The notes under the pieces were generated by a model that had not been told where the DNA came from, ran no database searches, and saw nothing but the letters and a program-made list of their open reading frames with translations. Made by a program: the position numbers and the translations under genes. DNA of 64,000 nucleotides from an uncultured Polaribacter sp. (lineage in GTDB: Bacteria > Bacteroidota > Bacteroidia > Flavobacteriales > Flavobacteriaceae), in assembly GCA_965367085.1 (NCBI GenBank), contig CBDUHF010000004.1:40996-104995 (forward strand), given 5' to 3'. Shown here piece by piece: positions 1 to 22,736 of this stretch (position 1 is the stretch's first letter; each line of letters starts with the position of its first letter).

Positions 1-1265
1 GTTCTACTAAATTAGGAGAAAACAATAAATGGGGTTTATTTCCAGCCTTAGGTTTGGGAGTAGATGTTAACAAATACTTAGAACTTGATAATGTAAATTT
101 ATTTAAAGTTCGTTTAGGGTATGGTGTTACTGGTTCTTTACCATCTCAATATGGTCTTCAATATGCAAGATTTGATCCTGCTTCAGACTTACTAAGCACA
201 AATCAAGTTACTGATGCAAATGATGACTTAAAATGGGAAGAAAAAGCTGAAACTAACTTAGGTATAGAATATGCTTCTGGAAGATTATCTGCAACTTTAG
301 ATCTATATACTCGTAAAGTTTCTGATTTTATTTTAGAGAGAACTGTAGATGTAGCAGTATACCCAACAGGTAGTCGTGTTGAAAACGGAGGAGATTTATC
401 TACAAAGGGTATAGAATTATCTGTAAATTATGACATCTTTAAAAATGAAGATTTAACATATAATTCTGGAATTGTTTTTTCTAGTTATAAATCTACTTTA
501 GATTCTTTTGACAGAAATGGATTAAGAGGTAATTTAGGAGCTCCAGGACAAAATGATACAAATGTTATATTAGTTGCTCCAGGTGAAGAAATAGGATTAA
601 TCTATGGACCTGTTTGGGATGGAACAATTACAGATGGTAGTCAGAATTTTGTTGATGTAAACGGTGATGGTACTTTACAAACAGACCAATTATATGATAA
701 TGCAATTGATGCTGATGGTGATGGTGTAATAGATGGTGATTTAAAAAAATTAGGTAAAGGTATTCCAGATTTTGAATTAGGTTGGTCTCATTCTCTTTCT
801 TATAAAAACTGGGATGTGAATGCATTGTTTAGAGGTGCTTTCGGTCACAGTATGGTAAATAACTTTAGAGTATTTTATGAGCCAAGAGTAGGTAGTCAAG
901 GTTCTTATAACTTTGTAAATACTTCTTTAGCAAATGCTGAAATTACAAATGCAAAATTTAGTTCACATTATGTAGAAAAAGCAGATTTCGTAAAGTTATC
1001 TAACTTATCAGTAGGATATACTTTTGATATAGCTGAAGACAATAAATATTTTAGCGACATAAGATTATCTTTAAGTGGTCAGAACTTATTTACACTTACA
1101 GGATATACTGGTGCAGATCCAGAACCAGCATTACAAGATAAAGGTTCTATAGATAACGGAGGGTTTTTAGGAACTTCTGCAGATCCATTAATACCTGGTA
1201 TAGACAGAAGATATAATTATTTTTCTTCAAGAACCATAACTTTTGGAATTAACATTAACTTTTAA
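1..1265 (+). CDS. SusC/RagA-type TonB-dependent outer-membrane transporter, C-terminal ~420 aa (5' end outside window)
   Basis: Frame 3 is open from the window edge (STKLGENNKWGLFPALGLGVDVN...), so the ATG at 54 is internal. The sequence is beta-barrel-like and ends ...RTITFGININF (terminal Phe). A SusD-like lipoprotein gene follows 11 nt later, which is the diagnostic pairing. Confidence 0.85.
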   Translation, partial: STKLGENNKWGLFPALGLGVDVNKYLELDNVNLFKVRLGYGVTGSLPSQYGLQYARFDPASDLLSTNQVTDANDDLKWEEKAETNLGIEYASGRLSATLDLYTRKVSDFILERTVDVAVYPTGSRVENGGDLSTKGIELSVNYDIFKNEDLTYNSGIVFSSYKSTLDSFDRNGLRGNLGAPGQNDTNVILVAPGEEIGLIYGPVWDGTITDGSQNFVDVNGDGTLQTDQLYDNAIDADGDGVIDGDLKKLGKGIPDFELGWSHSLSYKNWDVNALFRGAFGHSMVNNFRVFYEPRVGSQGSYNFVNTSLANAEITNAKFSSHYVEKADFVKLSNLSVGYTFDIAEDNKYFSDIRLSLSGQNLFTLTGYTGADPEPALQDKGSIDNGGFLGTSADPLIPGIDRRYNYFSSRTITFGININF

Positions 1266-1276
1266 AAAAAACATAA

Positions 1277-2887
1277 ATGAAATTAACATATAAATTATTT
1301 ACAATTTGTTTTGCACTACTTACTGTAGGTGCTTGTACAGATTTAGATGACGTTTTAGTAGGAGAAGTTGATTCTGCCTTTAATGGAACTGAGCCTTCTT
1401 TTGGAAATTTTGACGGAGGTGGTTCAGGGCCTTCAGATGCGGTAAGTTCTGCTTACAATCAGTTAAGAGAATCAGGATCTGCAAATCACGGTGGTTATTG
1501 GTCAGTACAATCTGTTTCTTCAGATGAAATGGCAATTACACAGAAAGGTGGAGATTGGTATGATGGTGGTATTTGGATAAACATGCACAGACATACATTT
1601 ACATCTACAAATGGGCCAATAAAAGATGCTTGGAACCAACAATATGCTGCAATTGGAGCGTGTAACACTTCTTTAGCTGACGGTGGTTTAGATGCTAATC
1701 AAACAGCACAAGTAAAAGCGTTAAGAGCATTTTTCTATTATAGATTATTAGACATGTATGGTAGAGTGAAGATTGTTACTACTCCTGGAGTAGATGCACC
1801 TCAATCTTCTAGAGCAGATGTATATAACTTTGTTGAAAGTGAATTATTAGCATCATTAGGAATTGCAAGTGTTACTGCTGGTATGGATTTATCTGCTAGT
1901 CCTTTAGGAACTGCAAATAACCCTTACAGAATTAATCAATTTGCTGCCTTAGGTTTATTAGCTAAATTATATTTAAATGCAGAAGTATATTCAGGAACTC
2001 CAAAATATGCAGAAGCTGCATTAGCTGCTGGTTATGTTATAGACAATGGAGGTTATATGTTATGTGATACTGGTTGTTCTGAAATTAATGAAGGTAGAAG
2101 ACCTTCTGTAGCATCTGATCCAGAAACATTAGAAGGATATGCAGCAGTTTTTGCTCCGAACAATCAAAACAATCCAGAAATTATTTGGTCTATTGCTTAT
2201 GATAATGTTTCAGGAACAAATATGAACTTTGCACAAATGTCTTTACATTATTCAAGTCAGTTTACATGGAACCTTGCAAATCAACCTTGGAATGGATATT
2301 CTGCGTTAGAAGATTTTTATAATTCTTATGAAGCTACTGATAAGCGTAAAACTGCAAACTTTATTGTTGGCCCACAATCAGATTATGAGGGTTCTGTTAT
2401 TTTAGATTATGCTGCTTCAGGTGGAGATTTAGAATTAACTTATACTCCAGAGATTGATGAATTAGAGCCTAATGCTTCTAGAAAAGGTGGTGCACGTTTA
2501 GGTAAATTTAGTTTTAGACAAGGACAACAAGATAATATGGATAATGATATGCCAATTATTCGTTTAGGAGATTTATATTTAATTAGAGCTGAAGGTAATG
2601 CAAGAGCAGCTTCTGATTGGAGTTTAGCAATGACCGATGTAAATACTATTAGAGCAAGAGCAGGTGTAGCTGCAATGACTAGTGTAACTGCAGATAGCTT
2701 TTTAGCAGAAAGGGGTAGAGAAATGTTTATGGAGGTTACTCGTAGACAAGATTTAATTCGTTTTGGTAAATGGTCTAGCTCATGGTGGGAAAAATCTAAC
2801 AGTGATTCATTTAGAACTGTTTTTCCAATACCACAAGAACAAATAGATGCTAGTGGTGGTACTTTAACACAAAACCCTGGGTACTAG
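1277..2887 (+). CDS. SusD/RagB family nutrient-binding outer-membrane lipoprotein
   Basis: 536 aa with lipoprotein signal MKLTYKLFTICFALLTVGAC. Size, position directly behind the susC-like gene and overall composition are typical of the SusD/RagB family. Confidence 0.85.
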   Translation: MKLTYKLFTICFALLTVGACTDLDDVLVGEVDSAFNGTEPSFGNFDGGGSGPSDAVSSAYNQLRESGSANHGGYWSVQSVSSDEMAITQKGGDWYDGGIWINMHRHTFTSTNGPIKDAWNQQYAAIGACNTSLADGGLDANQTAQVKALRAFFYYRLLDMYGRVKIVTTPGVDAPQSSRADVYNFVESELLASLGIASVTAGMDLSASPLGTANNPYRINQFAALGLLAKLYLNAEVYSGTPKYAEAALAAGYVIDNGGYMLCDTGCSEINEGRRPSVASDPETLEGYAAVFAPNNQNNPEIIWSIAYDNVSGTNMNFAQMSLHYSSQFTWNLANQPWNGYSALEDFYNSYEATDKRKTANFIVGPQSDYEGSVILDYAASGGDLELTYTPEIDELEPNASRKGGARLGKFSFRQGQQDNMDNDMPIIRLGDLYLIRAEGNARAASDWSLAMTDVNTIRARAGVAAMTSVTADSFLAERGREMFMEVTRRQDLIRFGKWSSSWWEKSNSDSFRTVFPIPQEQIDASGGTLTQNPGY

Positions 2888-2920
2888 TATTTAAAATTTA
2901 AGTTAATTATTTGATTTTTA

Positions 2921-2951
2921 AAGCGGATTACCCCATGGTAATCCGCTTTTT
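2921..2951 (+). terminator. Rho-independent terminator after susD-like gene
   Basis: Perfect 12-bp stem AAGCGGATTACC / GGTAATCCGCTT with loop CCAT, followed by a T run. Confidence 0.8.
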
Positions 2952-3118
2952 AATATCTAATCATTTTAATAAATTTCTTTAATTAAAAATGATTGAATAG
3001 CAACTGTTTTATAATTAATATGAAAGCTTTTTGTTTTATCTTTGAAAATATTGAGTACAACTCAACTAAAGACTGCAATTACAAATTTGTAACTGAAAAA
3101 TTATTACTTATCACACCC

Positions 3119-3126
3119 TAAATTTG
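3119..3126 (+). promoter_or_regulatory. Bacteroidetes-type -7 promoter box (TAAATTTG)
   Basis: Perfect match to the TAnnTTTG consensus, about 55 nt upstream of ATG 3182. It sits inside a cluster of AAATTTGT-type inverted and direct repeats. Confidence 0.45.
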
Positions 3127-3181
3127 TAAACAGTAAATTCACAAATTTTTAATGACCAATATGGTTTTGTAAACCTTTCTA

Positions 3182-6100
3182 ATGGACTTAAAAAAAATAT
3201 ATTGTATCTTACTCATAGTACTTTTCTTTTCTTGTAAAAATAAAGAAAACTCAAAACCACTTTTTGCTTTAAAACATAATATTGGGATTAATTTTTCTAA
3301 TATTTTAAAGGAAACTGAAGCGTTAAACCCATATACATATAAAAATTTTTATAATGGTGGTGGGGTTGCGTTAGGAGATATTAATAATGATGGTTTATTA
3401 GATATTTACTTTAGTGGAAATCAAGTTGAAAACCAATTATATCTTAATAAAGGAAATTGGAAATTTGATAATATTACTAAAAAATCTAATGTTTCTTGTA
3501 AAGACAATTGGTCTTCTGGTGTAACTTTTGTAGATATAAATAGTGATGGCTTTTTAGACATTTATGTTTGTCAAGCTGGTCCACCAAAAGAAACAGATAG
3601 ACACAATAAACTTTTTATAAATAATGGCGATCTAACTTTTACTGAGCAATCAGAAAAGTATGGACTTAATATTACTGGTTTAGCAGTTCAAGCAAATTTT
3701 TTCGATTTCGATAAAGATGGTGATCTAGACTGTTACCTCTTAAATAATTCTATACGATCTGTTGGTAATTATGATTTAATAAAAAATCAACGAGATAAAT
3801 CAACAGAAAAAGGAAATAAATTATTAAGAAATGATGATGGCTTATTTATAGATGTTACTGAAGAAGCTAATATATATTCAAGCGAAATTGGTTTTGGTTT
3901 AGGAATAACTGTCAGTGATTATAATAACGATACATGGCCAGATATATTTATTTCAAATGATTTTTTTGAAAGAGATTATTTATACATCAATCAACAAAAT
4001 GGAACTTTTAAAGAAAAATTAACTACTCAATTCGAATCTATTTCAATGGGTTCAATGGGCGCAGATGCTGCAGATTTAAATAATGATTCTAAAACAGATA
4101 TTATGGTTACAGAAATGTTACCTAAAACTATAGAAAGACAGCGTACTAAAACGTTGTTTGAATCTTGGAATAAATATGCATTGAGCGTTAAAAATGGTTA
4201 TCATTATCAATTTTCTAGAAATGCGTTGCATCAAAACATGGGAAATGATACTTTTTTAGAAATAAGTCGTTTTTCAAATGTTTCTGCATCTGAATGGAGT
4301 TGGTCTTCTTTATTGTTTGATGCTGATAATGATGGATTAAAAGATATTTTTATTAGTAATGGTATCTATAAAGACTTGTTAGATAGAGATTATTTAACAT
4401 ATATGGCTAATGAGCAACAGATAAAAGAAATGATGCAAAATGACAAAGATGTCATTAAAAAATTAATTGATAAAATGCCTTCTGAAGCAGTTCCAAACGT
4501 TATGTATAAGAACCAAGGAGACTTTAAATTTAAAAATAAAACACAAGATTGGGGTTTGCAGCAACCTAGTTTTAGTAACGGAAGTGCATATGGTGATTTA
4601 GATAATGATGGTGATTTAGATTTAGTTTTAAATAACGTAAATATGCCAGCATTTGTCTATGAAAATAAATTAGATAGCACTAAATATAAAAGCATTACAC
4701 TTCAACTAAAAGGTAGTAATAAAAACACTAAAGCTGTAGGTGCAAAAGCAGAAATTTTTTACAATGATTCAAAATATAGTACTTTAGAAAACTTTCCTTC
4801 ACGAGGATTTCAAAGCTCTGTAGGACATCAACTTGTTTTTGGAGTTGGCAATTGTTCTATTATTGATAGTTTAAAAATAAGTTGGCCAAATGGAGCTAAT
4901 AGTGTTTACAAAAACTTAAAAACCAATTCTAACTACGTTTACAAAGAACCAAAAGAAGGAAATAAAACTATCATAAAAAAGGAAATAAATTCTCAAAATC
5001 CGTTAAAGTTAGCTGAAAAAAAATTTCACTTTAATCATAAAGAAAATAAAGCAGTAGATTTTAATAGTGAGCAGTTATTACCAGAAATGTTTAATAATGA
5101 AGGACCTCATATAGCTACTGCAGATATTAATAATGATGGAAATCCAGATTTTTATATAGGAGGCGCAAAAGGACAATCAGGAAAATTATTTATTTCTCAA
5201 AAAGACAAAAGTTATAAAGAAATAACAAGACCATTTAACACACATTATACTTCTGAAGATACAGATGCCATTTTTTTTGATAGTGATGGTGATGGTGATT
5301 TAGATTTATATGTATGTAGTGGTGGAAAATCATTTTCAAAGTATGATTTTTCTTTACACGATAGATTGTATATAAATAATGGTAATAAAAACTTTACAAT
5401 TAGTAAATCAAAACTACCCTTTAAAACACCTATTAGCACTTCAACAGTTTCTGCATATGATTATGATAATGATGGTGATGAAGACCTTTTTGTAGGAGAA
5501 CGATTTAAAGTTGCTACTTATGGTATTCCTGTAAGTGGTTATCTTTTAGAAAATAAAGGAAATAATGTTTTTGAAATATCTAATCAAGAGGTATTAAAAA
5601 ATATTGGATTAATTACAGATTCTTTCTGGAAAGACATTAACAATGATGGTGTAAAAGAACTAATAGTTGCAGGAGAATGGATGCCAATTAGTGTTTTTAA
5701 ATTCTCTGAAGGGAAATTAATAAACATCACAAAAGAATTTGGATTAGAAAACTCAAATGGGTTATGGAAAAGGATAAAAATAGTAGATATAGATGGTGAT
5801 GGTGATCTAGATATTATAGCAGGAAATAAAGGAGAAAACACATTTTTTGAAGAAGAAATGAGAATGTATGTTTCAGATTTTGATAATAACGGAACTGTAG
5901 AATCTATTATTTGCTATAAGAAAGGTAACGAGTATTATCCTATTGTAGATAGAGATGAATTAATTGGTCAAATTGCAAGCTTAAAACAAAAACTACTTTA
6001 TTATAAAGATTATGAAAATGCTACAATGAATTCTATTTTCACTAAAGAACAACTTCAAAAAGCAATATTTTTAGATATAAAAACGGTACAATCAAAATTA

Positions 6101-6439
6101 TTTATTAATACTGAAAATAAATATAAAGCCCTTAGACTTCCAAATAAAATCCAGTATTCAAATACCTCAGCAATTGAAACTATAGACATTAATAACGATG
6201 GAAATTTAGATATTTTATTTGGTGGAAATCAATATCTTGTAAAGCCGCAATTTGGAAGACAAGATGCTTCATCTGGCTGGCTATTGTATGGAAGTAAAAA
6301 GAAAAACAGTTTTAATAAAGTAATTCCTTTAAATATAAAAGGGCAAATAAGGGATTTTAAAATCAAAGAAATCAATCATAAAAAATACATAATAACTACT
6401 ATAAATAATGATAGCATACAATTTCATGAAATACAATAA
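3182..6439 (+). CDS. VCBS/FG-GAP repeat + ASPIC/UnbV domain lipoprotein (CRTAC1-like), paralog 1
   Basis: 1085 aa with lipobox ...VLFFSC. There are 14 D-x-[ND]-x-D-G-x-x-D-[ILV] calcium-loop repeats, 7 before and 7 after a central UnbV-like segment (...NKNTKAVGAKAEIFY...SRGFQSS...ISWPNG). Confidence 0.85.
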   Translation: MDLKKIYCILLIVLFFSCKNKENSKPLFALKHNIGINFSNILKETEALNPYTYKNFYNGGGVALGDINNDGLLDIYFSGNQVENQLYLNKGNWKFDNITKKSNVSCKDNWSSGVTFVDINSDGFLDIYVCQAGPPKETDRHNKLFINNGDLTFTEQSEKYGLNITGLAVQANFFDFDKDGDLDCYLLNNSIRSVGNYDLIKNQRDKSTEKGNKLLRNDDGLFIDVTEEANIYSSEIGFGLGITVSDYNNDTWPDIFISNDFFERDYLYINQQNGTFKEKLTTQFESISMGSMGADAADLNNDSKTDIMVTEMLPKTIERQRTKTLFESWNKYALSVKNGYHYQFSRNALHQNMGNDTFLEISRFSNVSASEWSWSSLLFDADNDGLKDIFISNGIYKDLLDRDYLTYMANEQQIKEMMQNDKDVIKKLIDKMPSEAVPNVMYKNQGDFKFKNKTQDWGLQQPSFSNGSAYGDLDNDGDLDLVLNNVNMPAFVYENKLDSTKYKSITLQLKGSNKNTKAVGAKAEIFYNDSKYSTLENFPSRGFQSSVGHQLVFGVGNCSIIDSLKISWPNGANSVYKNLKTNSNYVYKEPKEGNKTIIKKEINSQNPLKLAEKKFHFNHKENKAVDFNSEQLLPEMFNNEGPHIATADINNDGNPDFYIGGAKGQSGKLFISQKDKSYKEITRPFNTHYTSEDTDAIFFDSDGDGDLDLYVCSGGKSFSKYDFSLHDRLYINNGNKNFTISKSKLPFKTPISTSTVSAYDYDNDGDEDLFVGERFKVATYGIPVSGYLLENKGNNVFEISNQEVLKNIGLITDSFWKDINNDGVKELIVAGEWMPISVFKFSEGKLINITKEFGLENSNGLWKRIKIVDIDGDGDLDIIAGNKGENTFFEEEMRMYVSDFDNNGTVESIICYKKGNEYYPIVDRDELIGQIASLKQKLLYYKDYENATMNSIFTKEQLQKAIFLDIKTVQSKLFINTENKYKALRLPNKIQYSNTSAIETIDINNDGNLDILFGGNQYLVKPQFGRQDASSGWLLYGSKKKNSFNKVIPLNIKGQIRDFKIKEINHKKYIITTINNDSIQFHEIQ

Positions 6440-7001
6440 ACTCACTAAAGGCGTATTCTTTTTTAGCTTACTATTTTTATTTTCCTGTCAATCAGACTAT
6501 ACAAAATTGGTAAAAAAAGAACTTGCTACTGGGATTAAAAATGATACCCTCCTTTATAATTTAAAATTTGGTAACACTAAAAAAGAATTTTATACAATTT
6601 GCTGGAATTTAAATAGTAAAGGGACTGTTACTCATGGAGGTAATAATAATTACGTAAAAACTGTTTTACGTCCAAAAGATAGTATCAATAAAACAAAAGC
6701 AATTAAGATGCTGTTTTATGCAAAATTTAATACCGAAGATATTATTACAGGAATGGACATGAAATTTACATATTCTGCTTGGGCACCTTGGAATAAGGAT
6801 TTACAAGCAGACAGTTTATTCCCAGTTGTACAAGACACTCTTCTAAAATGGTATCCTGGTAACGAATTTATAGAAGTAAAGAAAGGTATTCTAGTAAAAA
6901 TAGATGGAAATAGGCAAATACAACTCAAAAAAGAATCTGATAAAGATGTTTCTGTTTTGATAGAAAATTTAGAATACAAATACAAAACATTAGTTGATTA
7001 A
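6426..7001 (+). CDS. Small lipoprotein of unknown function
   Basis: The ORF track starts at 6408. The ATG at 6426 gives a canonical signal MKYNKLTKGVFFFSLLFLFSC. It overlaps the stop of the upstream gene by 14 nt. I recognise no family. Confidence 0.6.
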   Translation: MKYNKLTKGVFFFSLLFLFSCQSDYTKLVKKELATGIKNDTLLYNLKFGNTKKEFYTICWNLNSKGTVTHGGNNNYVKTVLRPKDSINKTKAIKMLFYAKFNTEDIITGMDMKFTYSAWAPWNKDLQADSLFPVVQDTLLKWYPGNEFIEVKKGILVKIDGNRQIQLKKESDKDVSVLIENLEYKYKTLVD

Positions 7002-7014
7002 AAATAGATATACA

Positions 7015-10000
7015 ATGAAACAATATTACAGTGTTTTTTTGATAGTTTTTATTCTGTCTTGTGGCAAAACAGAAGAAAATAAAACCCAGTTTGAACTTTT
7101 ATCTTCAGAAACAACAAATATTAATTTTAGTAACGATTTAACCTCTACAGATACATTTAATGTCTATAGATATAGAAATTTTTACAACGGCGGTGGTGTA
7201 GCTATTGGTGATGTAAATAATGATGGTTTACAAGATATATATCTGACAGCCAACCTAAAAGAAAATAAATTGTTTTTAAATAAAGGTAATTTTAAGTTTG
7301 AAGATATTACTAAAAAAGCAAACGTTGGCGGAACAAAAGCATGGTCTACAGGAGTTTCTATGGTAGATATTAATGCAGATGGATTTATAGATATTTATGT
7401 TTGTAATTCTGGTGATGTAAAGGGAGATAACAAGCAAAATGAATTATTTATTAATAATGGAGATGGAACTTTTTTAGAAAAAGCAGCTGAATATGGGTTA
7501 GCAGATTTAGGGTTTTCTACACATGCTTCTTTTTTCGATTATGATAAAGATGGAGATTTAGATGTGTATTTATTAAACAATTCTTATCAATCTATAGGTA
7601 GTTTTAACCTTACAAAAAATGAAAGACCAAATCGTGACGTTTTAGGTGGAGATAAATTGTTTGAAAACAACAATAATCATTTTGTAGATGTAAGCGAAAA
7701 AGCAGGTATTTATGGCAGTATTATTGGGTTTGGTTTAGGTGTAACTGTAAGTGATTTAAATAATGATGGTTGGGAAGATATTTATGTTTCTAATGATTTT
7801 TTTGAAAGAGATTACCTTTATATTAATCAACAAAACGGCACTTTTAAAGAACAATTAACTAGTGCTATTAGCTCTATTAGTGGGGCTTCTATGGGAGCAG
7901 ATGCAGCAGATATTAATAATGATGGTTTTAATGATATTTTTGTTACTGAAATGCTACCAAAAGACTACGAGAGGTTAAAAACTGTAACAACATTTGAAGA
8001 TTGGAACAAATACCAATACAATCTTAAAAATGATTATTACCACCAGTTTACTAGAAATATGTTACAGTTAAATAACAGTGACGAAACGTTTAGTGAAGTA
8101 GGAAGATTTAGTGGTGTAGAAGCTTCTGACTGGAGTTGGGGAGCATTGTCTTTCGATATGAATAATGATGGTTCTAAAGATCTATTTATTGCCAATGGAA
8201 TATATAAAGATTTAACAAATCAAGATTATTTACGCTATGTTTCTAACGAAGAAGTACTACAATCTTTAGTAAAAGGTAATAAAGTAGATTACAAAAAATT
8301 AATTGACATTATTCCTTCTAATAAAGTAAAAAACCATGCTTATATTAATAAAGGGAATCTTGCATTTGAACGTGAAAATAATGGCTTAAATGCAGAAGGG
8401 TTTTCTAATGGTGCTGCTTATGGAGATTTAGATAATGATGGAGACATGGACTTGGTTGTAAACAACGTTAATATGCCATTATTTGTTTATAAAAATAATT
8501 TAGACACACAGAAAACCAATTATGTAAAACTTATTTTAAATGGCGAAGGTGCTAATAAAAACGCTATTGGAGCAAAAATAAAATTAGCAACAAAATCTGG
8601 TAATTATTATTTAGAACAACAACCTGTTAGAGGTTTTCAATCTTCAATGGATAATAGACCAAACTTTGGTTTTAAAGACAAAGAAAATGTTAGTTTAACT
8701 GTAACCTGGCCTTCAGGAAAAAGAACTCAATTAGAAAATATTGAAGTAAATAAAACTTTAACACTATTTGAAAAAGATGCACAAGAATATTTAAATAAAG
8801 ACGAAAAAAACAATAAAAAACTCTTTATTAAAAATCAAAACACACTTCAATTTGTGCATAAAGAAAATAATTATAGCGATTTTAATGTAGATCGTTTGTT
8901 GCCATTTATGAGAAGTACAGAAGGACCAAAAATGGCAATTGCAGATATTAATAATGATGGAAAAGCAGCTGTTTTTATTGGTGGATCTAAAAACAATATA
9001 TCATCATTATTTTTACAGAATAATGATTCTTTTACACAAAGTAAAACATCCGTTTTTGATAAACAAAAATCTGCAGAAGATACAGAAAGCCTATTTTTTG
9101 ATGCAGATGGCGATGGAGATTTAGATTTATATGTATGCAGTGGAAGTATAGAAACATCTAAATACAGCGCAAATTATTTAGATAAATTATATGTAAATGA
9201 TGGAAAAGGAAATTTTTCAATATCCAATCAAAAATTACCAAGTATTACTAAATTTCATAGTACAAGCACAGTTATTGCTGCTGACATTGATAATGATAAC
9301 GATTTAGATTTATTTGTAGGCGAAAGAGCTGTTCCAAACTCTTATGGAGTTCCTGGTTCAGGTTTTTTATTAATAAATGATGGAAAAGGAAATTTTATAG
9401 AAAAATCTGAAAGTTTAGCTCCTCAATTTAAAAACCTAGGTATGATTACTGATGCCGTTTTTATTGACATTAATAAAAATGGATATGAAGATTTGGTTGT
9501 TGTTGGAGAGTTTATGGGAATTGAAGTTTTTGAAAATCAAAAAGGAAGTTTCCAAAAATTAAAAGACAGTCCATTATCTCAAGTAAAAGGTTGGTTTAAA
9601 ACAATTGAAAAAAGCGATTTGGATAATGATGGGGATTTAGACTTAATTCTAGGAAATCATGGTTTAAATAGTAGATTTAGAGCCAATGAAAAGCATCCTA
9701 TAAAATTATTCTTAAACGATTATGACAACAATGGTTTTTTAGATCCAATTCTTTCTTTTACTGCAGAAAACGGGAAAAATTATCCATATGCATTGCGTCA
9801 TGATTTAGTAGATCAATTAAAATATTTAAGTAAAAAATTTCCTGATTACGATTCTTTTAAAGCAGCAACAATTGAAGATATTTTCACCAAAGAACAACTT
9901 CAAAAGAGCACTGTTTTGGAAGCAAATACATTAAGCTCCATAATACTTATTAATGAAGGTAATTTTAAATTTAAAATTCAAGAATTGCCTACAGAAACAC

Positions 10001-10278
10001 AGTTTTCACCTATTTATGCAATTGCTACATCAGATTTTGACAAAGATGGTGATCAAGACATTATTTTAGGAGGAAATCTTAACGGTGTAAAACCTGAGTT
10101 TGGTAAATATGATGCTTCTTTTGGAAATTATTTAGAAAATATAGGTAATAATCAATTTAAGTTTCATCAAACAGGAAAAGGACTAAAAGTTAAAGGGCAA
10201 ATACGAGATATTAAGGTATTGAACAATACGATTTTTATCACAAAAAACAACGATTCATTAGAAGTTTACAAATATTAA
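7015..10278 (+). CDS. VCBS/FG-GAP repeat + ASPIC/UnbV domain lipoprotein, paralog 2
   Basis: The ORF track starts at TTG 6994. The ATG at 7015 gives signal MKQYYSVFLIVFILSC. It has the same 7 + UnbV + 7 architecture (GAKIKLAT...VRGFQSS...VTWPSG) and shares identical stretches with paralog 1 (DFFERDYLYINQQNGTFKE). Confidence 0.85.
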   Translation: MKQYYSVFLIVFILSCGKTEENKTQFELLSSETTNINFSNDLTSTDTFNVYRYRNFYNGGGVAIGDVNNDGLQDIYLTANLKENKLFLNKGNFKFEDITKKANVGGTKAWSTGVSMVDINADGFIDIYVCNSGDVKGDNKQNELFINNGDGTFLEKAAEYGLADLGFSTHASFFDYDKDGDLDVYLLNNSYQSIGSFNLTKNERPNRDVLGGDKLFENNNNHFVDVSEKAGIYGSIIGFGLGVTVSDLNNDGWEDIYVSNDFFERDYLYINQQNGTFKEQLTSAISSISGASMGADAADINNDGFNDIFVTEMLPKDYERLKTVTTFEDWNKYQYNLKNDYYHQFTRNMLQLNNSDETFSEVGRFSGVEASDWSWGALSFDMNNDGSKDLFIANGIYKDLTNQDYLRYVSNEEVLQSLVKGNKVDYKKLIDIIPSNKVKNHAYINKGNLAFERENNGLNAEGFSNGAAYGDLDNDGDMDLVVNNVNMPLFVYKNNLDTQKTNYVKLILNGEGANKNAIGAKIKLATKSGNYYLEQQPVRGFQSSMDNRPNFGFKDKENVSLTVTWPSGKRTQLENIEVNKTLTLFEKDAQEYLNKDEKNNKKLFIKNQNTLQFVHKENNYSDFNVDRLLPFMRSTEGPKMAIADINNDGKAAVFIGGSKNNISSLFLQNNDSFTQSKTSVFDKQKSAEDTESLFFDADGDGDLDLYVCSGSIETSKYSANYLDKLYVNDGKGNFSISNQKLPSITKFHSTSTVIAADIDNDNDLDLFVGERAVPNSYGVPGSGFLLINDGKGNFIEKSESLAPQFKNLGMITDAVFIDINKNGYEDLVVVGEFMGIEVFENQKGSFQKLKDSPLSQVKGWFKTIEKSDLDNDGDLDLILGNHGLNSRFRANEKHPIKLFLNDYDNNGFLDPILSFTAENGKNYPYALRHDLVDQLKYLSKKFPDYDSFKAATIEDIFTKEQLQKSTVLEANTLSSIILINEGNFKFKIQELPTETQFSPIYAIATSDFDKDGDQDIILGGNLNGVKPEFGKYDASFGNYLENIGNNQFKFHQTGKGLKVKGQIRDIKVLNNTIFITKNNDSLEVYKY

Positions 10279-10279
10279 T

Positions 10280-13200
10280 ATGATAAAAAGAATAATTTTA
10301 TTTTCTCTTATTATAGTTGGTTGTACCAAAGATAAAATAGTAAAAGAAAGCATAGAAAAAGAACTATTTACTGAAGTAGCTTCTGAAGTTTCTGGCATTC
10401 ATTTTTCAAATGATTTAAAAGAAAAAGGAGACTTAAATATTATTGAGTACTTGTATTATTATAATGGTGGTGGGGTTGCTTTAGGCGATATAAATAATGA
10501 CGGATTAGATGATATTTATTTAACAGCAAATCAAAAACCAGATAAATTATATCTTAATGAAGGAAATTTAAAGTTTAAAGATATTTCATTGCTTGGTAAA
10601 ATAAGTCAAGATAGCACTTGGTCTACAGGTGTTACCATGGTAGATATCAATAAAGATGGTTTTCTAGATATTTATGTTTGTAAAGTTGGTAATTACAAAA
10701 CTTTAAAAGCAACAAATGAGTTGTATATTAATAACGGAGATAACACTTTTACGGAAGAAGCAAAAAAGTATGGATTAGACTTTTCAGGTTTTTCTACACA
10801 GGCTTCTTTTTTCGATTATGACCAAGATGGAGATATGGATATGTATCTATTAAATCATTCTGTACACTCTACCTACTCTTATGGAAATGCTAAGTTAAGA
10901 GAAAAATCAGATGTGTTAGCTGGTGATATTTTATTTGAAAACATTGGTAAAAATGGAACAATTAAATTTGTTGATGTTACTAAAAAAGCAGGTATTTATA
11001 ATAGTGCATTAGGATATGGATTGGCTATTGCTACTTCAGATTTTAATAATGATGGATTAATGGATATTTATGTTGGTAATGATTTTCATGAAAATGATTA
11101 TTTATACATCAATAATGGAAATAAGACCTTTACAGAATCTACTGCAGATTACTTTACGAGTACTTCTAGATTTACGATGGGTGTTGATGTTGCAGACATT
11201 AATAATGATAAAAAATTAGATTTAATTTCTTTAGATATGATGCCTTACAAATCAGAAGTATTTCTGAAATCTGGTGGAGAAGATTCTGATAAAATTAATG
11301 AAATCAAAAAATCGTTTGGCTTTCAACAGCAATATGCCAGAAACCATTTGCAAATAAATAAAGGAACTCATTTTTCTGATGTAGCTTTATATGCTGGAGT
11401 CCATGCAACAGATTGGAGCTGGTCTCCACTATTATTAGATTATAATAACGATGGATTACAAGATATTTATATTACAAACGGAATTTACAAAAGACCAAAT
11501 GATTTAGATTATGTAAATTATTTAAGTAATCTAGATTTTGCAAAATATACTTCAAATCAACAGGATACATTAGAAAAAAAATTAATTGAAACAATGCCAA
11601 CTTTAGGGTTGTCTAATATATTATTTCAAAATAATGACAATCTAGATTTTACAAAAACGATTATCAATTCTAAGAAAAAAACAAGCTATTCTAATGGTGC
11701 TGCTTATTCTGATTTAGATTTAGATGGTGATTTAGATATTGTTGTAAATAATCTAAATGAAAAAGCAACTTTGCTAGAAAACAAAACTACATCAACTAAT
11801 TATATATCTATAAATTTATTAGAAGAGGAGAATGGTCTAAACACAAATGGAGTAAAAGTATCCCTTTATGCTGGTGATAAAAGTTTTTATAAAGAACAAA
11901 CTACTGTTAGAGGTTTTCAATCTAGTTCTACAAGAAAAGTTCATTTTGGTTTAGCAGATTTGTCTAAAGTAGATTCTATAATAGTTGTTTGGAATGATGG
12001 TTCAGAAACTCTTCAAAAAGAAATTTCTATCAATAAAGTAATAACCATTAAAAAAGGAAAAACTTCTAAACATATTTTTGAAAAACCAACAAAAAACACA
12101 CACAAAGAGTTTATATATAAACATATAGAAAATGATTTCCTAGATTATGAAAGAGAAGCTTTAATGCCAGAAAAATTATCTACTGAAGGTCCTTCTGTTG
12201 TTCAGGCAGATTTTAATGCTGATGGTTTAAAAGACCTGTTTATTGGTGGCGCAAGAAATCAAAAACCTGTTTTATATTTTCAAACTAAAGATGGAAAATA
12301 TATGCTTCAAAACAATGCTGTTTTTGAAAAAGACAACATATATGAAGATGTAGATGCTATTGCTTTTGATATTGATGGCGATAATGATTTAGATATTTAC
12401 GCTTTAAGTGGAGGAAATGATTTTAAAGAGGGAGATCCGATGTTAGAAGATCGTGTGTATATAAATGATGGAAAAGGGAATTTCACAAAACTAGATGCAA
12501 GATTATTAGCTACAAATGGAGGGTCGGTTTCATCTTTTGATTATAATAAAGATGGATTTCAAGATTTATTTATTGGAAATAGATCTATTCCTGGAGCTTA
12601 TGGTTTATCACCATTTAGTTTTATTCTTAAAAATACTGGAAATAACAATTTTGAGATTGAGGTAAAGACTCGTTTTGGAATGGTTACAGATAGTAAATGG
12701 GCAGATTTAGAAAATGATGGAGAAATAGAATTAATAGTTGCTGGAGACTGGATGCCAATAACCGTTTTATCGTATACAAAAGAAGGAAAGTTTGAAAACA
12801 AAACCAAAGAAATGGGATTGGATAAAACAAATGGAATGTGGAATGTTCTTAAAATAACAGATATTAATAAAGATGGACTTTTAGATATACTAGGAGGAAA
12901 TACAGGAACCAATTTTAAATGGACAGCTTCTAAAGAAAAACCAGTAAAAATGTATTTAGATGATTTTGATGGAAACAAACAATTAGATCAACTTATATTT
13001 TATAATTATTTTGGTACAGACGTGCCTTTTGCTTCTAAAGATAAATTGGTACAACAAATACCTAAATTAAAAAAACAGTTTTTAAAGTATGCTGCTTTTT
13101 CAAAAGTAGCATCTATAGAAGATTTAAATTTAAAAGATAAAAAATCTATTTTAGAAACTAAATATATTTATGAATTACGTTCTATGCTATATATAAATAA

Positions 13201-13504
13201 TGGAACTACATTCACTCAAAAAGCATTAGCAAAAGAATCTCAGTTAAGTACTATCGAAGATTTTTATATAAATAATGATGAAATTATTTATACTGGAAAC
13301 TTTGATGGTTTTGTAACAGAACTAGGAAAAAGTATTTCAAATTCTGGAGGAATCTTATCTTTTACAGATAATAATATATACCAAAAAAGTGCCTTGCAAT
13401 TACCTACAAAATTTCACGGAAGAAAAATTGTAAAACTAAATGATGAAGAATATTTAATTCTATCTAATAACGGAAACTCATATATTTTAAATACTAAAAA
13501 ATAG
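10280..13504 (+). CDS. VCBS/FG-GAP repeat + ASPIC/UnbV domain lipoprotein, paralog 3 (more divergent)
   Basis: 1074 aa with lipobox SLIIVGC. It starts 1 nt after the stop of paralog 2. It has 7 N-terminal Ca-loop repeats, a UnbV-like centre (GVKVSLYA...VRGFQSS...VVWNDG) and 6 clear plus 1 degenerate C-terminal repeats. Confidence 0.85.
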   Translation: MIKRIILFSLIIVGCTKDKIVKESIEKELFTEVASEVSGIHFSNDLKEKGDLNIIEYLYYYNGGGVALGDINNDGLDDIYLTANQKPDKLYLNEGNLKFKDISLLGKISQDSTWSTGVTMVDINKDGFLDIYVCKVGNYKTLKATNELYINNGDNTFTEEAKKYGLDFSGFSTQASFFDYDQDGDMDMYLLNHSVHSTYSYGNAKLREKSDVLAGDILFENIGKNGTIKFVDVTKKAGIYNSALGYGLAIATSDFNNDGLMDIYVGNDFHENDYLYINNGNKTFTESTADYFTSTSRFTMGVDVADINNDKKLDLISLDMMPYKSEVFLKSGGEDSDKINEIKKSFGFQQQYARNHLQINKGTHFSDVALYAGVHATDWSWSPLLLDYNNDGLQDIYITNGIYKRPNDLDYVNYLSNLDFAKYTSNQQDTLEKKLIETMPTLGLSNILFQNNDNLDFTKTIINSKKKTSYSNGAAYSDLDLDGDLDIVVNNLNEKATLLENKTTSTNYISINLLEEENGLNTNGVKVSLYAGDKSFYKEQTTVRGFQSSSTRKVHFGLADLSKVDSIIVVWNDGSETLQKEISINKVITIKKGKTSKHIFEKPTKNTHKEFIYKHIENDFLDYEREALMPEKLSTEGPSVVQADFNADGLKDLFIGGARNQKPVLYFQTKDGKYMLQNNAVFEKDNIYEDVDAIAFDIDGDNDLDIYALSGGNDFKEGDPMLEDRVYINDGKGNFTKLDARLLATNGGSVSSFDYNKDGFQDLFIGNRSIPGAYGLSPFSFILKNTGNNNFEIEVKTRFGMVTDSKWADLENDGEIELIVAGDWMPITVLSYTKEGKFENKTKEMGLDKTNGMWNVLKITDINKDGLLDILGGNTGTNFKWTASKEKPVKMYLDDFDGNKQLDQLIFYNYFGTDVPFASKDKLVQQIPKLKKQFLKYAAFSKVASIEDLNLKDKKSILETKYIYELRSMLYINNGTTFTQKALAKESQLSTIEDFYINNDEIIYTGNFDGFVTELGKSISNSGGILSFTDNNIYQKSALQLPTKFHGRKIVKLNDEEYLILSNNGNSYILNTKK

Positions 13505-13515
13505 ACCAAACTCAT

Positions 13516-14847
13516 ATGAATAATTTATTAAAATCTTTGCTTTTTATATTCATAATAGGAACTTTGATTCGTTGTCAAAAACCATCAGAACCTATAGAAA
13601 TTAATATAAATACTTATCATGCAGCTGTAGATAAGGTTACAGAAATTATGATTCATGATATTTTTTCGCCACCAGTAGCAAGTAGAATTTTTGCATATCC
13701 TAATATTGCTGCGTATGAAATTTTAGCACAAAATGATTCTATTTACAAATCTATAGAAAATACATTAAATGGATTAACATCTATTCCTAAAGTAGCTGAA
13801 ATTGATAAAGTAAATTTAAAAGTGTCGGCATTAATAGCACATATGGAATTAAGCAAAATGTTGGTTTTTTCTGAAGATAAACTAAACGTTTTAAAAGATA
13901 GTTTATATCAAAAATGGAATGACACAAATGAACAAGAGTTTATGAATTCTAAAGAATATGCTTTAAAAGTTGTAAAACATATTAAAAAATGGATGGATGC
14001 AGATAATTACAATCAGACCAGAACAATGCCAAAATTTACGGTAGACACAGATGATCCTTCTAGGTGGCAACCTACTCCACCAGCCTATATGGATGGAATA
14101 GAACCTCATTGGAATAAAATTAGACCTTTTATTTTAGAAACTGCCTCACAATTTAAACCTATACCTCCACCAAAGTTTTCAATGGATAAAGACTCTGATT
14201 TTTATAAAGAGCTAATAGAAGTCTATAATATCAGTCAGAAAATAACAAAAGAAGGAGATAAATCTGAAGAGATTGCAATTGCCCAATTTTGGGATTGTAA
14301 TCCGTTTGTTTCTGTAACCAGAGGGCATTTTATGTTTGCTACAAAAAAGATTTCTCCAGGTGCACATTGGATTGGAATTGTAAAAATTGCAACGAAGAAA
14401 ACCAATTCAAATTTTATGGAAACTGTAAATGCATATACCAAAACATCTTTGGCAATCGCAGATGGTTTTATTAGTTGTTGGGATGAAAAATACAGAAGTA
14501 ATTTAGTTCGTCCAGAAACACTAATAAATCTAAATATAGATCCAGATTGGCTTCCAATTTTACAAACACCTCCTTTTCCAGAATATACAAGTGGTCATTC
14601 TGTAGTTTCTGGAGCAGCTTCAACAATGTTAACAGCTATTTTTGGTGATAATTTTGCTTTTGATGATGATACTGAAGTTCAATTTGGTTTGCCTATAAGA
14701 ACGTTTAAATCTTTTAATGCAGCAGCAGATGAAGCAGCAATTAGTAGAATGTATGGAGGTATTCATTATAGAGCTGCTGTTGAAGTTGGTGTAAAGCAAG
14801 GTAGAGACCTAGGAAAGTTTGTTGTTAGTAAATTAAGCACTAAATAG
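13516..14847 (+). CDS. Vanadium-dependent haloperoxidase-like / PAP2-superfamily lipoprotein
   Basis: 443 aa with signal ending TLIRC. The PAP2/VHPO active-site motifs are present in order: K325-x6-R-P (KYRSNLVRP), S-G-H (PEYTSGHS) and S-R-x5-H (SRMYGGIH). The terminal HxxxD of acid phosphatases reads HYRAA. Confidence 0.7.
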   Translation: MNNLLKSLLFIFIIGTLIRCQKPSEPIEININTYHAAVDKVTEIMIHDIFSPPVASRIFAYPNIAAYEILAQNDSIYKSIENTLNGLTSIPKVAEIDKVNLKVSALIAHMELSKMLVFSEDKLNVLKDSLYQKWNDTNEQEFMNSKEYALKVVKHIKKWMDADNYNQTRTMPKFTVDTDDPSRWQPTPPAYMDGIEPHWNKIRPFILETASQFKPIPPPKFSMDKDSDFYKELIEVYNISQKITKEGDKSEEIAIAQFWDCNPFVSVTRGHFMFATKKISPGAHWIGIVKIATKKTNSNFMETVNAYTKTSLAIADGFISCWDEKYRSNLVRPETLINLNIDPDWLPILQTPPFPEYTSGHSVVSGAASTMLTAIFGDNFAFDDDTEVQFGLPIRTFKSFNAAADEAAISRMYGGIHYRAAVEVGVKQGRDLGKFVVSKLSTK

Positions 14848-14869
14848 TTGGCTTAATTTTTCAACAAAC

Positions 14870-14882
14870 CGAAACGTTTTCG
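14870..14882. promoter_or_regulatory. Candidate LacI-type operator (CG-centred palindrome), site A
   Basis: CGAAACGTTTTCG contains the palindrome AAACGTTT and lies about 70 nt upstream of the GH97 start. It shares AAACGTTTTC with site B at 22737..22748. Confidence 0.4.
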
Positions 14883-18448: not shown

Positions 18449-19681
18449 ATGAAAAACCTAGCCATTAAAATATCTATTTACCTTAACTATTTTGTTTTTG
18501 CTATTTTATTAAATAGTGTTGGTATTGTAATAGAAAAATCTATTGATGTTTATAAAGTAAGTGAATCTCAAGCTTCAGTTTTAGAAGCTTTTAAAGACTT
18601 ACCAATTGCATTAGTTTCTTTTTTAATTGCATCTTTCCTACCACGTTTTGGTTATAAAAAAGCGATGTTAACAGCTTTAGCAATTGTGTTTTTTGGCTGC
18701 TTATATATGATCTTTGGAAATACTTTTTATCATACCAAAGTTTTGTTTTTATCAATAGGTGTTAGTTTTGCTTTAATAAAATTATCTGTTTATTCTCTTA
18801 TAGGAATTCTAACAGATTCTAAAAAAGAACATGCTTCAATGATGAGTTCTATTGAAGGGTTTTTTATGGTAGGTATTGCTTTGGCTTATTTTTTATTCCC
18901 AGTTTTTTATTCTGAAGATGAAAATTCTTGGCTAAATGTATATTTCCTTTTATGTGGACTTATTTTAATCTCATTTTTATTTCTTCTATTTTCTAAAATA
19001 GAATATGAAGTAGAGGTTATAGGCTCTAGCTTAAAAGAAGACTTAAGGGAATCTGTTAAATTAATTATCATTCCATTAGTTTTAATTTTTATCATTTCTG
19101 CTTTTTTGTTTGTTATGATAGAACAAGGAATTATGACTTGGTTGCCAACTTTTAATAAGAAAATATTTAATTTTAGCTCTGTGCTAAGCGTTCAAATGGC
19201 CAGTATACTAGCGCTCTCTCTAGCACTTGGTAGGTTTATTGCTGGTTTTTTAACCAAACATATTAACTGGGTAGTTTTAGTAATAGTCTGTGTTGTAATT
19301 TCTGGAGGAATTCTTTTATATATTTTACCTCAATTACAAGGAGATATTGAATCTATTGGAGAAATAACAAGCTTATCAGATGTTCCAATGCTTGGTTTTA
19401 TTTTACCATTAATTGGGCTGTTTATTGCTCCTATTTATCCATTATTAAATTCAACTGTATTAAGTTCTTTGCCAAAAAGTTTACACTCACCAATGTCTGG
19501 TTTAATTATTATATTTTCTGCTTTAGGAGGAACAATTGGTTCTAGAATTGTTGGTGAATTATTTGAAAGTATTGGTGGTGCAAGTGCTTTTTACTTCCTG
19601 TTAATTCCAATGACTTTGCTAATAATTTTTGTTTTATTAATTGATAGAATGTCTAAAAAACAAGTTGTTTCAAAATCATGA
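18449..19681 (+). CDS. MFS transporter (sugar-type, second)
   Basis: 410 aa with about 12 hydrophobic segments. It is embedded in the sugar locus, and its stop overlaps the trehalase start by 4 nt. Confidence 0.6.
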   Translation: MKNLAIKISIYLNYFVFAILLNSVGIVIEKSIDVYKVSESQASVLEAFKDLPIALVSFLIASFLPRFGYKKAMLTALAIVFFGCLYMIFGNTFYHTKVLFLSIGVSFALIKLSVYSLIGILTDSKKEHASMMSSIEGFFMVGIALAYFLFPVFYSEDENSWLNVYFLLCGLILISFLFLLFSKIEYEVEVIGSSLKEDLRESVKLIIIPLVLIFIISAFLFVMIEQGIMTWLPTFNKKIFNFSSVLSVQMASILALSLALGRFIAGFLTKHINWVVLVIVCVVISGGILLYILPQLQGDIESIGEITSLSDVPMLGFILPLIGLFIAPIYPLLNSTVLSSLPKSLHSPMSGLIIIFSALGGTIGSRIVGELFESIGGASAFYFLLIPMTLLIIFVLLIDRMSKKQVVSKS

Positions 19682-22711: not shown

Positions 22712-22736
22712 ACATTCATTACAAAAATGAATTTAC

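Follow-up and report, generated by a model that had tools for sequence, protein, structure and literature searches.

A SusC/SusD, beta-propeller and iodoperoxidase gene block in Polaribacter and its apparent place in a LacI-controlled alpha-glucoside regulon

We analysed a stretch of 64,000 nucleotides from an uncultured Polaribacter sp. (GenBank assembly GCA_965367085.1, contig CBDUHF010000004.1, positions 40,996 to 104,995; hereafter the window), whose first 14,847 nucleotides hold a susC/susD pair, three genes for large beta-propeller lipoproteins, a small lipoprotein gene and a predicted vanadium-dependent iodoperoxidase gene. Taken as a whole, the reading that we favour stands at about even odds: positions 1 to 14,847 would encode the outer-membrane part of a regulon under LacI control, which serves small non-reducing alpha-glucosides and extends to about 25.5 kb, with the propellers and the iodoperoxidase as accessory parts. 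The regulon assignment alone is held with fairly high confidence, and the roles given to the propellers and the iodoperoxidase with low confidence. From the genes present, the substrates would be of the trehalose, sucrose or isomaltose type, which are typical algal osmolytes or exudates.

Gene layout, sugar genes and the LacI-type operator

The GC content of the window is low (about 29%), and its open reading frames (ORFs) and domain matches lie far above chance; its proteins are 99% identical to those of a metagenomic contig, and its nearest relative is Polaribacter sp. SA4-10 (propeller 2 94% identical). The seven genes of positions 1 to 14,847 all lie on the forward strand. What the window holds of SusC matches Pfam TonB_dep_Rec_b-barrel (3e-12) and NCBIfam TIGR04056 SusC/RagA (5e-54, model positions 595-981), and the SusC orthologue in SA4-10 is full-length, at 999 aa. 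With susC and susD co-oriented and 11 nt apart, the locus has the SusC/SusD pair by which a polysaccharide utilization locus (PUL) is defined. From position 3182 on, with ATG starts used, the junctions measure -14, +13, +1 and +11 nt. The accessory lipoproteins carry the lipoboxes LFFSC, LFLFSC, FILSC and IIVGC, and acidic residues at +3 to +5 past the lipobox Cys are compatible with surface export, without being decisive. The seven co-oriented genes, their spacings and their lipobox strings had been reported in a preliminary description of this DNA, and the ORF listing with its translations bears them out. The features in question are these:

54..1265, + strand: SusC-like TonB-dependent transporter, C-terminal 403 aa (ORF; the gene begins 5' of the window edge)
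1277..2887, + strand: SusD-like lipoprotein (Pfam SusD_RagB 7e-23 and SusD-like_3; lipobox TVGAC, then acidic TDLDD)
2920..2952, + strand: terminator-like or attenuator hairpin directly 3' of susD (13-bp stem, 4-nt loop, U-run)
3182..6439, + strand: propeller lipoprotein 1, 1,085 aa (Pfam FG-GAP_3 1e-74, UnbV_ASPIC 2e-15)
6426..7001, + strand: small lipoprotein, 191 aa (the ORF opens at 6408, giving 197 aa; lipobox LFLFSC; no known family)
7015..10278, + strand: propeller lipoprotein 2, 1,087 aa from ATG 7015 (1,094 aa from TTG 6994; FG-GAP_3 6e-77, UnbV_ASPIC 7e-18)
10280..13504, + strand: propeller lipoprotein 3, 1,074 aa (Pfam FG-GAP_3 about 1e-63, UnbV_ASPIC 3e-14)
13516..14847, + strand: vanadium-dependent iodoperoxidase orthologue, a 443-aa lipoprotein (Pfam PAP2; phmmer against the PDB)
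14869..14882: degenerate LacI-type operator CCGAAACGTTTTCG, its palindrome lacking one base, 72 nt 5' of the start of GH97
14954..17086, + strand: glycoside hydrolase (GH) family 97 alpha-glucosidase, SusB-like, lipoprotein (IISAC; Pfam GH97_N, Glyco_hydro_97, GH97_C)
17126..18439 and 18449..19681, + strand: two major facilitator superfamily (MFS) sugar transporters (Pfam MFS_1, MFS_2)
19678..21543, + strand: GH37 trehalase (Pfam Trehalase 5e-134), without signal peptide and hence predicted cytoplasmic
21545..22711, + strand: third MFS transporter (Pfam MFS_1)
22736..22749: LacI-type operator CGAAAACGTTTTCA, one mismatch, between the third MFS and fructokinase genes
22852..23781, + strand: PfkB fructokinase-type kinase (Pfam PfkB 8e-52), predicted cytoplasmic
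23795..25531, + strand: GH13_18 enzyme like sucrose or sucrose-6F-phosphate phosphorylase (NCBIfam sucrose_gtfA 1e-95; PDB 6s9u, 655 bits)

Same-strand genes thus resume 106 nt past the iodoperoxidase stop codon, and GH97, GH37 and GH13_18 all lie on that strand within the next 10.7 kb, none of them inside positions 1 to 14,847. The best NCBIfam name for the GH97 protein is an alpha-galactosidase, which comparison with the PDB rules out: it scores about 650 bits against alpha-glucosidases and about 190 bits against GH97 alpha-galactosidases, as a SusB-like alpha-glucosidase. The N-terminus of the GH13_18 enzyme predicts a cytoplasmic location, and beyond 25.5 kb follow housekeeping genes (malic enzyme, RuvA, SprA and others). 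The preliminary description had seen no glycoside hydrolase or regulator in the unit, which holds inside positions 1 to 14,847 only, GH97 beginning at 14954; its wider claim of a PUL-like unit with no carbohydrate-active enzyme (CAZyme) does not stand, as the genes run on into GH97, three MFS transporters, GH37, PfkB and GH13_18 and the operator is common to both parts. The lack of CAZymes followed from where the unit boundary had been drawn, and on our result the notion of a PUL free of CAZymes has to be corrected.

The operator was recognised in related loci. A divergent LacI-family gene stands 5' of susC in at least 29 of them, and the palindrome CGAAAACGTTTTCG is common to the LacI-susC intergenic regions. 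When no more than one error was allowed, the 1.59 Mb of fetched DNA contained 61 matches, nearly all at two positions: in about 35 loci the palindrome lies 105-230 nt 5' of susC, and in at least 12 loci it lies between the iodoperoxidase gene and whichever gene comes next, GH13, GH97 or MFS. SA4-10 has a perfect operator 141 nt 5' of susC. The window contains two matches at two mismatches or fewer, against 0.11 expected, and full 14-mers occupy the GH97-proximal position in loci of other genera (L012, L013, L016, L017, L023, L026, L029, L032 and L087, where L-numbers denote the related loci fetched for comparison). Because a common operator precedes both, one LacI-type regulator appears to govern the outer-membrane block together with the alpha-glucoside catabolic genes. 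The non-canonical substrate favoured by the preliminary description is not supported, given this LacI-type operator before susC and the sugar genes and an earlier prediction of the orthologous locus as a trehalose PUL.

Indeed, the locus belongs to an already catalogued PUL type. Kappelmann et al. (2019, ISME J, PMC6298971; Suppl. Table S3, Fig. S2J) labelled PUL116 of Flavobacteriaceae bacterium MAR_2010_119 'trehalose', with the entry order LacI::SusC::SusD::ASPIC/UnbV::hypothetical::ASPIC/UnbV::ASPIC/UnbV..., and PUL103 of MAR_2010_105 bears the same label. In the latter strain (L087) we read PfkB / LacI / SusC / SusD / propeller / 190 aa / propeller / propeller / PAP2 / GH13 / MFS / MFS / GH37. 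This trehalose PUL of the two strains is orthologous to the window locus, with the same gene order and a propeller 2 that is 74% identical; the window GH97 sits where they have a GH13_31-type glucosidase, and otherwise they match in content and order, whereas SA4-10 has 3-keto-disaccharide genes 5' of susC instead of LacI. The published substrate prediction, 'alpha-1,1-glucan, likely trehalose', was made from GH37 and GH13 only, with no discussion of the propellers or the haloperoxidase, and SusC/D of the trehalose-PUL type occur in North Sea bloom metaproteomes (PMC6298971). Variants in the same table are labelled 'alpha-glucan' (Dokdonia PUL62) or 'unknown' (G. forsetii PUL156 and MAR_2010_188 PUL122), and PUL156 holds a glucoside 3-dehydrogenase, FG-GAP proteins and a vanadium haloperoxidase. 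A published function for this locus type, which by the terms of the preliminary description counts against its proposal, does exist, in the form of a bioinformatic 'trehalose' label (PMC6298971); in the literature we found no paper on SusC/D with VCBS/UnbV proteins and a haloperoxidase, or on the role of the propellers or the iodoperoxidase in such loci. In a Polaribacter-dominated Arctic bloom, copy numbers of Bacteroidetes GH37, GH13_18 and GH13_31 follow chlorophyll (PMC11573768).

Canonical starch and alpha-glucan Sus PULs (susRABCDEFG of B. thetaiotaomicron; in flavobacteria LacI-SusC-SusD-SusE-GH13/GH65/GH97) have much in common with the window, including SusC/SusD, lipoprotein genes directly 3' of susD as in the SusE/F arrangement, a SusB-like GH97, LacI control in Flavobacteriia and MFS import. 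However, the window has neither SusE/F (Pfam finds no SusF_SusE domain or carbohydrate-binding module in its lipoproteins) nor a surface amylase and carries the propellers, the small lipoprotein and the iodoperoxidase instead, and its catabolic genes (GH37, GH13_18, fructokinase) indicate disaccharides, not polymer. TonB-dependent scavenging of a mere disaccharide has a precedent in the sucrose CUT (carbohydrate utilization containing TonB-dependent transporter) locus of Xanthomonas campestris, suxR-suxC-suxA-suxB, which provides TonB-dependent, LacI-regulated disaccharide uptake. A LacI repressor, a TonB-dependent transporter, an inner-membrane MFS carrier and a cytoplasmic GH13 enzyme are found in that locus and in the window type alike, whereas SusD, propeller lipoproteins and a haloperoxidase are absent from the Xanthomonas locus.

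Conservation of the gene block and the hairpin after susD

To survey relatives, we scanned an alignment of the small lipoprotein against one genome per GTDB species, which found relatives in 151 species, and fetched 80 loci (L005-L084), which were mapped by tblastn; further loci are L086 (SA4-10), L087 (MAR_2010_105) and L088 (Urechidicola croceus CP017478.1). The order SusC-SusD-propeller 1-small lipoprotein-propeller 2-propeller 3 recurs in essentially every fetched locus with enough flank, across Flavobacteriaceae, Cyclobacteriaceae, Flammeovirgaceae, Roseivirgaceae, Saprospiraceae, Lewinellaceae and some metagenome-assembled genomes (MAGs) of Bacteroidales. Complete loci number 29 in Flavobacteriaceae, with SusCD in 29, three propellers in 28 and the iodoperoxidase in 27 (directly after propeller 3 in 25), and 23-24 in other Bacteroidota, with SusCD in 21, three propellers in 16 and the iodoperoxidase in about 9, where it is sometimes upstream of the block on the opposite strand. 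Look-ups anchored on the iodoperoxidase found three propeller genes directly upstream in 5/5, and Polaribacter dokdonensis, Winogradskyella alexanderae and Croceivirga radicis all have the order propeller, small lipoprotein, propeller, propeller, iodoperoxidase. Judged by these gene orders, susC/susD, the three propellers, the small lipoprotein and the iodoperoxidase form a block that is conserved across Bacteroidota. The adjacency on which the preliminary description had staked its proposal is therefore upheld in relatives (in Flavobacteriaceae 29/29 for SusCD and 27/29 for the iodoperoxidase).

Several loci depart from this order. In a second architecture, met in the other two anchored look-ups, Urechidicola croceus (L088) and a flavobacterium (L089), there are three propellers and no small lipoprotein, and the iodoperoxidase is followed by a GyrI-like gene and an SGLT-type symporter; a GyrI-like gene 3' of PAP2 is also present in Kappelmann PUL122. 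Two Lewinellaceae/Saprospirales MAGs hold rearranged forms: in L067 the small-lipoprotein homologue lies between two SusC/SusD pairs and a propeller comes only after the second pair, and in L068, a rearranged locus, a second SusC follows the homologue. Two contigs labelled 'MAG: Arenicella sp.', a gammaproteobacterium label (JBLHIE01; L007 and L015), carry the locus with proteins 68-82% identical to those of the window, which probably reflects mis-binning or contamination of the MAG.

What follows the iodoperoxidase varies among relatives. Two MFS genes are kept 3' of it in many Flavobacteriaceae; other followers are a GH13_31-type enzyme resembling oligo-1,6-glucosidase or sucrose isomerase (12 loci), GH97, a 210-aa protein with MFS (10 loci), FGGY kinases (7 loci) and SGLT-type symporters. 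Some Cyclobacteriaceae loci also have SusE/F after the propellers and a secreted GH13; a true SusF_SusE gene in addition to the propellers is present in L058. The conserved protein of about 210 aa is without a Pfam match; its gene separates the iodoperoxidase gene from the first MFS gene in 10 Flavobacteriaceae loci (L010:18495-19136 and 9 others) and is not in the window. The protein has a weak precomputed match of PRK/uridine-kinase-like type, and Kappelmann PUL122 has a 'uridine kinase' at the same position.

In SA4-10, HL-MS24, Urechidicola, L051, L072 and G. forsetii, the block has neighbours that belong to the 3-keto-disaccharide pathway: genes for a DUF1080 hydrolase, for a TIM-barrel protein resembling xylose isomerase and for oxidoreductases of the Gfo or GMC type. 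Several genomes have, beside the block, oxidoreductase genes of the GMC, glucoside-3-dehydrogenase and Gfo types. In SA4-10 the pathway genes lie immediately 5' of susC, with the LacI operator in between. Such genes are found at L086:1-1110, L006:38-1461 and L088:15717-21335; among their products are Gfo/Idh/MocA proteins and a GMC oxidoreductase accompanied by a Gluconate_2-dh3 subunit. Experiments in Bacteroidota have established trehalose, palatinose, leucrose and raffinose as substrates of this pathway (Liu et al. 2021, PMC8121099). The DUF1080, xylose-isomerase-like and Gfo/GMC genes that flank the block in relatives likewise make up B. thetaiotaomicron BT2156-BT2160, which has homologues in Pedobacter and Echinicola. 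Unlike those loci, the window contains no 3-keto genes and represents a hydrolytic and phosphorolytic route (GH97, GH37, GH13_18).

The preliminary description had placed a single operon directly behind susC/susD. The junctions from position 3182 on are as tight as it stated, but a 294-nt gap with a strong hairpin separates susD from the first propeller gene. The hairpin at 2920-2952 has a folding energy of -21 kcal/mol (z = -6.4; 0/200 shuffles fold as well), and its stem shows compensatory changes among Polaribacter. A similar hairpin with a T-run, of unrelated sequence, is found in 33/64 related loci, among them L006, L012, L015, L018-L021, L024-L026, L028-L030, L032 and L034-L036. Such hairpins 3' of susD in PULs fit differential expression inside one operon; the one here fits attenuation after susCD rather than an uninterrupted operon, and it may be an attenuator that sets the ratio of susCD to accessory-gene expression. 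The gap between susD and propeller 1 is only 40-110 nt in most relatives, so that read-through from susD into the propeller gene is likely there, and the longer gap of the window might hold a promoter of its own. TAnnTTTG motifs occur in it at 3037 and 3119, with no enrichment of the motif, and scans with sigma-70 and terminator consensus sequences, which are ill-suited to Bacteroidota, gave no more matches than in shuffles. The palindrome TTACAAATTTGTAA in the same gap was dropped, since it is not kept in SA4-10, and an Rfam search of the window gave no match.

Propellers, small lipoprotein and iodoperoxidase

All three large proteins combine FG-GAP_3/FG-GAP (FG-GAP/VCBS) with UnbV_ASPIC in Pfam and NCBIfam, and contain 12, 13 and 9 calcium loops of the form Dx[DN]x[DN]G in propellers 1, 2 and 3, respectively. 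They are paralogues, propellers 1 and 3 being 49% and 40% identical to propeller 2, the best conserved of the three; sequence and comparison show an ancient triplication of a CRTAC1-like double propeller. Searches of PDB sequences give CRTAC1 (9ETN) as the closest and sole solved relative. An AlphaFold2 (AF2) model of propeller 2, with a predicted local distance difference test score (pLDDT) of 74.7, has two propellers with UnbV_ASPIC between them, and its sole specific fold match in the PDB by Foldseek is murine CRTAC1 (9etn, E 6e-23, template modelling (TM) score 0.71 on the target), the others being generic multi-propeller proteins (DDB1, SF3B3, integrins). No CAZyme fold is among the top 50 Foldseek matches of this model against the PDB, and Pfam, NCBIfam, PDB sequence search and Foldseek find no catalytic CAZyme domain in any of the three proteins; sequence and fold searches thus agree with the earlier view of CRTAC1/UnbV-type proteins without a recognisable CAZyme domain. 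Vertebrate CRTAC1 (ASPIC; PDB 9ETN) and the UnbV proteins of enediyne clusters likewise have an FG-GAP/VCBS calcium-loop beta-propeller followed by UnbV_ASPIC. The bacterial proteins differ from vertebrate CRTAC1 in being lipoproteins, in coming as three paralogues within a PUL and in having a second propeller (residues ~640 to 1094) in place of the EGF-like tail, no EGF-like domain being found by Pfam. No published function for the bacterial CRTAC1/UnbV propeller family was found in the literature, as the preliminary description had already held. Many polar and aromatic residues outside the calcium loops (for example NDFFERDYLYIN, WSW, H622 and E624) are invariant over the three paralogues and 27 orthologues. 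The tyrosine share of the propellers is ordinary (4.4-5.2%), and a thyroglobulin-like iodination scaffold is therefore unsupported.

The small lipoprotein matches nothing in Pfam, NCBIfam or the PDB sequences, and its homologues fall into 182 clusters, all of them without a name. Its AF2 model is confident (pLDDT 88), and a fold search with it returned nothing significant, the best TM scores being 0.35-0.42. In the locus map of related loci its gene constantly lies between propeller genes 1 and 2.

The last gene of the block, in terms of its residues, is that of a true vanadium haloperoxidase, an orthologue of the characterised iodoperoxidase Zg-VIPO1 of Zobellia galactanivorans (Fournier et al. 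2014), which supports the putative halide-oxidising enzyme of the preliminary description. In a phmmer search the 443-aa protein matches PDB 4cit_A (4CIT/4USZ, Zg-VIPO1) over residues 7-440 with an E-value of 1.4e-211 and 706 bits, and it is about 75% identical to the crystallised enzyme over its full length. The vanadate ligands K325, R332, S359, G360, H361, R411 and H417 are invariant in 121 orthologues; we take these to be the counterparts of the Zg-VIPO1 ligands, with an offset of 8 that was checked on the PDB chain. Zg-VIPO1 is reportedly strictly iodide-specific. Its second-shell Tyr263 corresponds to Phe264 in the window protein, and the orthologues have Phe in 30/121 and Tyr in 91/121. 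The two enzymes differ at this residue and have in common all vanadate-binding residues and an N-terminal lipoprotein-type signal. The lipobox of the window protein, LIRC (TLIRC), is atypical, but orthologues keep its Cys, mostly within a canonical box such as LTGC. In one locus (L029:17080-18394) the orthologue is broken into two ORFs, through a frameshift or pseudogene formation or a MAG assembly error. SSF-family genes beside the iodoperoxidase (Croceivirga, Urechidicola) were considered as iodide symporters and rejected, being SGLT-type (217-226 bits against vSGLT, 57-73 bits against NIS).

Proposed mechanism, rival explanations and significance

We propose the following course of events for a LacI-controlled alpha-glucoside regulon. 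The LacI-type repressor would free the operons once a small alpha-glucoside or disaccharide effector is present, and SusCD would take in the glycoside at low ambient concentration. GH97 may then act in the periplasm or at the surface, a place that GH13_31 or the 3-keto pathway could fill in relatives, and the MFS carriers would pass disaccharides inward to trehalase, phosphorylase and fructokinase. The propellers and the small lipoprotein, in the SusE/F position, would probably be calcium-dependent accessory parts of the SusCD complex, for substrate capture or as a scaffold, and apparently not glycosidases. With iodide, the iodoperoxidase would use or remove H2O2 at the envelope, where it may shield the uptake machinery in the peroxide-rich phycosphere or, alternatively, may consume the H2O2 from periplasmic 3-keto-glycoside oxidation, whose genes repeatedly flank the block.

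A number of observations weigh against this regulon reading. The CAZymes downstream vary by lineage (GH97, GH13_31, SusE/F with secreted GH13, a GH63-like enzyme, or none within 10 kb), and since they differ between lineages, the core may serve more than one substrate. The GH97-proximal operator is one base short in the window lineage and more degraded in SA4-10, and this nearest relative has the operator only, with no LacI gene directly 5' of susC; the LacI gene and susC promoter of the window lineage fall outside the window. About 60% of non-flavobacterial loci lack the iodoperoxidase. The 'trehalose' substrate in PMC6298971 is itself a prediction, of bioinformatic kind only, and the roles suggested for the propellers, the small lipoprotein and the iodoperoxidase come solely from position and family. 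Furthermore, why the capture of a disaccharide needs about 3,250 aa of surface protein is not obvious, and the substrate could be larger or different.

The original proposal was of a self-contained, CAZyme-free surface machine: the propellers would bind a non-canonical substrate from algae or particles, which the haloperoxidase would process oxidatively before TonB-dependent import, in this case through hypoiodous acid (HOI). We consider this unlikely. It draws strength from the kept adjacency of propellers and iodoperoxidase (27/29 Flavobacteriaceae loci and 5/5 anchored look-ups), from intact catalytic residues in the latter and from the lack of a CAZyme domain in the former. However, glycoside hydrolases, sugar transporters and kinases follow directly with the same operator, a LacI regulator implies a sugar effector, and many non-flavobacterial loci with SusCD and propellers do without the iodoperoxidase. 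To our knowledge, HOI-mediated substrate processing in a PUL has no precedent. The pairing does occur in other PUL types as well, namely G. forsetii PUL156 and Cellulophaga PUL47 (PMC6298971), which also counts in favour of this proposal. It is equally unlikely, in our view, that the propellers are new carbohydrate-active enzymes, for instance calcium-dependent beta-propeller lyases, hydrolases or isomerases that act on alpha-glucosides or on the polymer that releases them. Their many invariant polar and aromatic residues outside the calcium loops would suit an enzyme, and in Cyclobacteriaceae, which have a separate SusE/F gene, the binding role may already be filled. Calcium-dependent beta-propeller lyases do exist, in the polysaccharide lyase families PL11, PL24 and PL25. 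On the other hand, no search in Pfam, NCBIfam, PDB sequences or folds returned CAZyme similarity, the sole specific match, CRTAC1, is no known enzyme, and the invariant residues could be merely structural.

Two further explanations place iodide oxidation at the centre. One, to which we give a small chance, is that the block is a distinct envelope module, present across Bacteroidota and not concerned with glycan binding, that couples sugar availability or periplasmic sugar oxidation, through H2O2, to iodide oxidation at the outer membrane. If so, sugar-induced HOI production or iodine accumulation would be expected in marine Bacteroidota, and the module would supply the missing genetics of iodine uptake in Flavobacteriaceae strain C-21 along with a first function for bacterial CRTAC1/UnbV proteins. 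In that strain, iodine accumulation needs glucose, O2 and Ca2+, and a membrane oxidase with a haloperoxidase has been proposed (PMC5064120). The other, a very slim chance, is a dedicated iodine-handling system in which periplasmic sugar oxidation yields H2O2 and then HOI, the propellers aid capture or uptake, and the locus is the genetic basis of C-21 accumulation. The orthology with Zg-VIPO1, the 9-13 calcium loops in each propeller, the dependence of the C-21 phenotype on glucose, oxygen and calcium (PMC5064120) and the flanking GMC, glucoside-3-dehydrogenase and Gfo-type oxidoreductase genes all agree with such a system. The case is nonetheless wholly circumstantial: SusCD systems import glycans, the SSF transporters nearby are of the glucose and not the iodide type, and the tyrosine share of the propellers is ordinary. 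It is most improbable, finally, that the adjacency is historical, with susCD stopping at the hairpin and the propeller-iodoperoxidase operon an independent unit beside the sugar genes. The strong hairpin and 294-nt gap after susD, the TAnnTTTG motifs at 3037 and 3119, and the variant of L088 and L089, which lacks the small lipoprotein and shows no susCD within view, would agree with it, but families and orders of Bacteroidota have the gene order in common, the gap from susD to the propeller is only 40-110 nt in most loci, and hairpins fit differential expression in one operon.

The locus is widespread in bloom-associated marine Bacteroidota (Polaribacter, Winogradskyella, Lutibacter) and also in Saprospiraceae and Cytophagales, and its assignment to a LacI alpha-glucoside regulon would link it to the turnover of algal osmolytes and exudates such as trehalose, sucrose and similar sugars rather than to that of polysaccharides. 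Worth pursuing is why a sugar-uptake regulon keeps double propellers, a small lipoprotein and an iodoperoxidase together across the phylum; an answer would assign bacterial CRTAC1/UnbV proteins their first function and could connect carbohydrate foraging with marine iodine and peroxide chemistry.

Among the housekeeping genes beyond the regulon, and unrelated to it, SprA of the type IX secretion translocon (2,380 aa, Pfam SprA_N 5e-199) occupies window positions 28551-35693, with GcvH, VanZ-like and TonB-like genes 3' of it.

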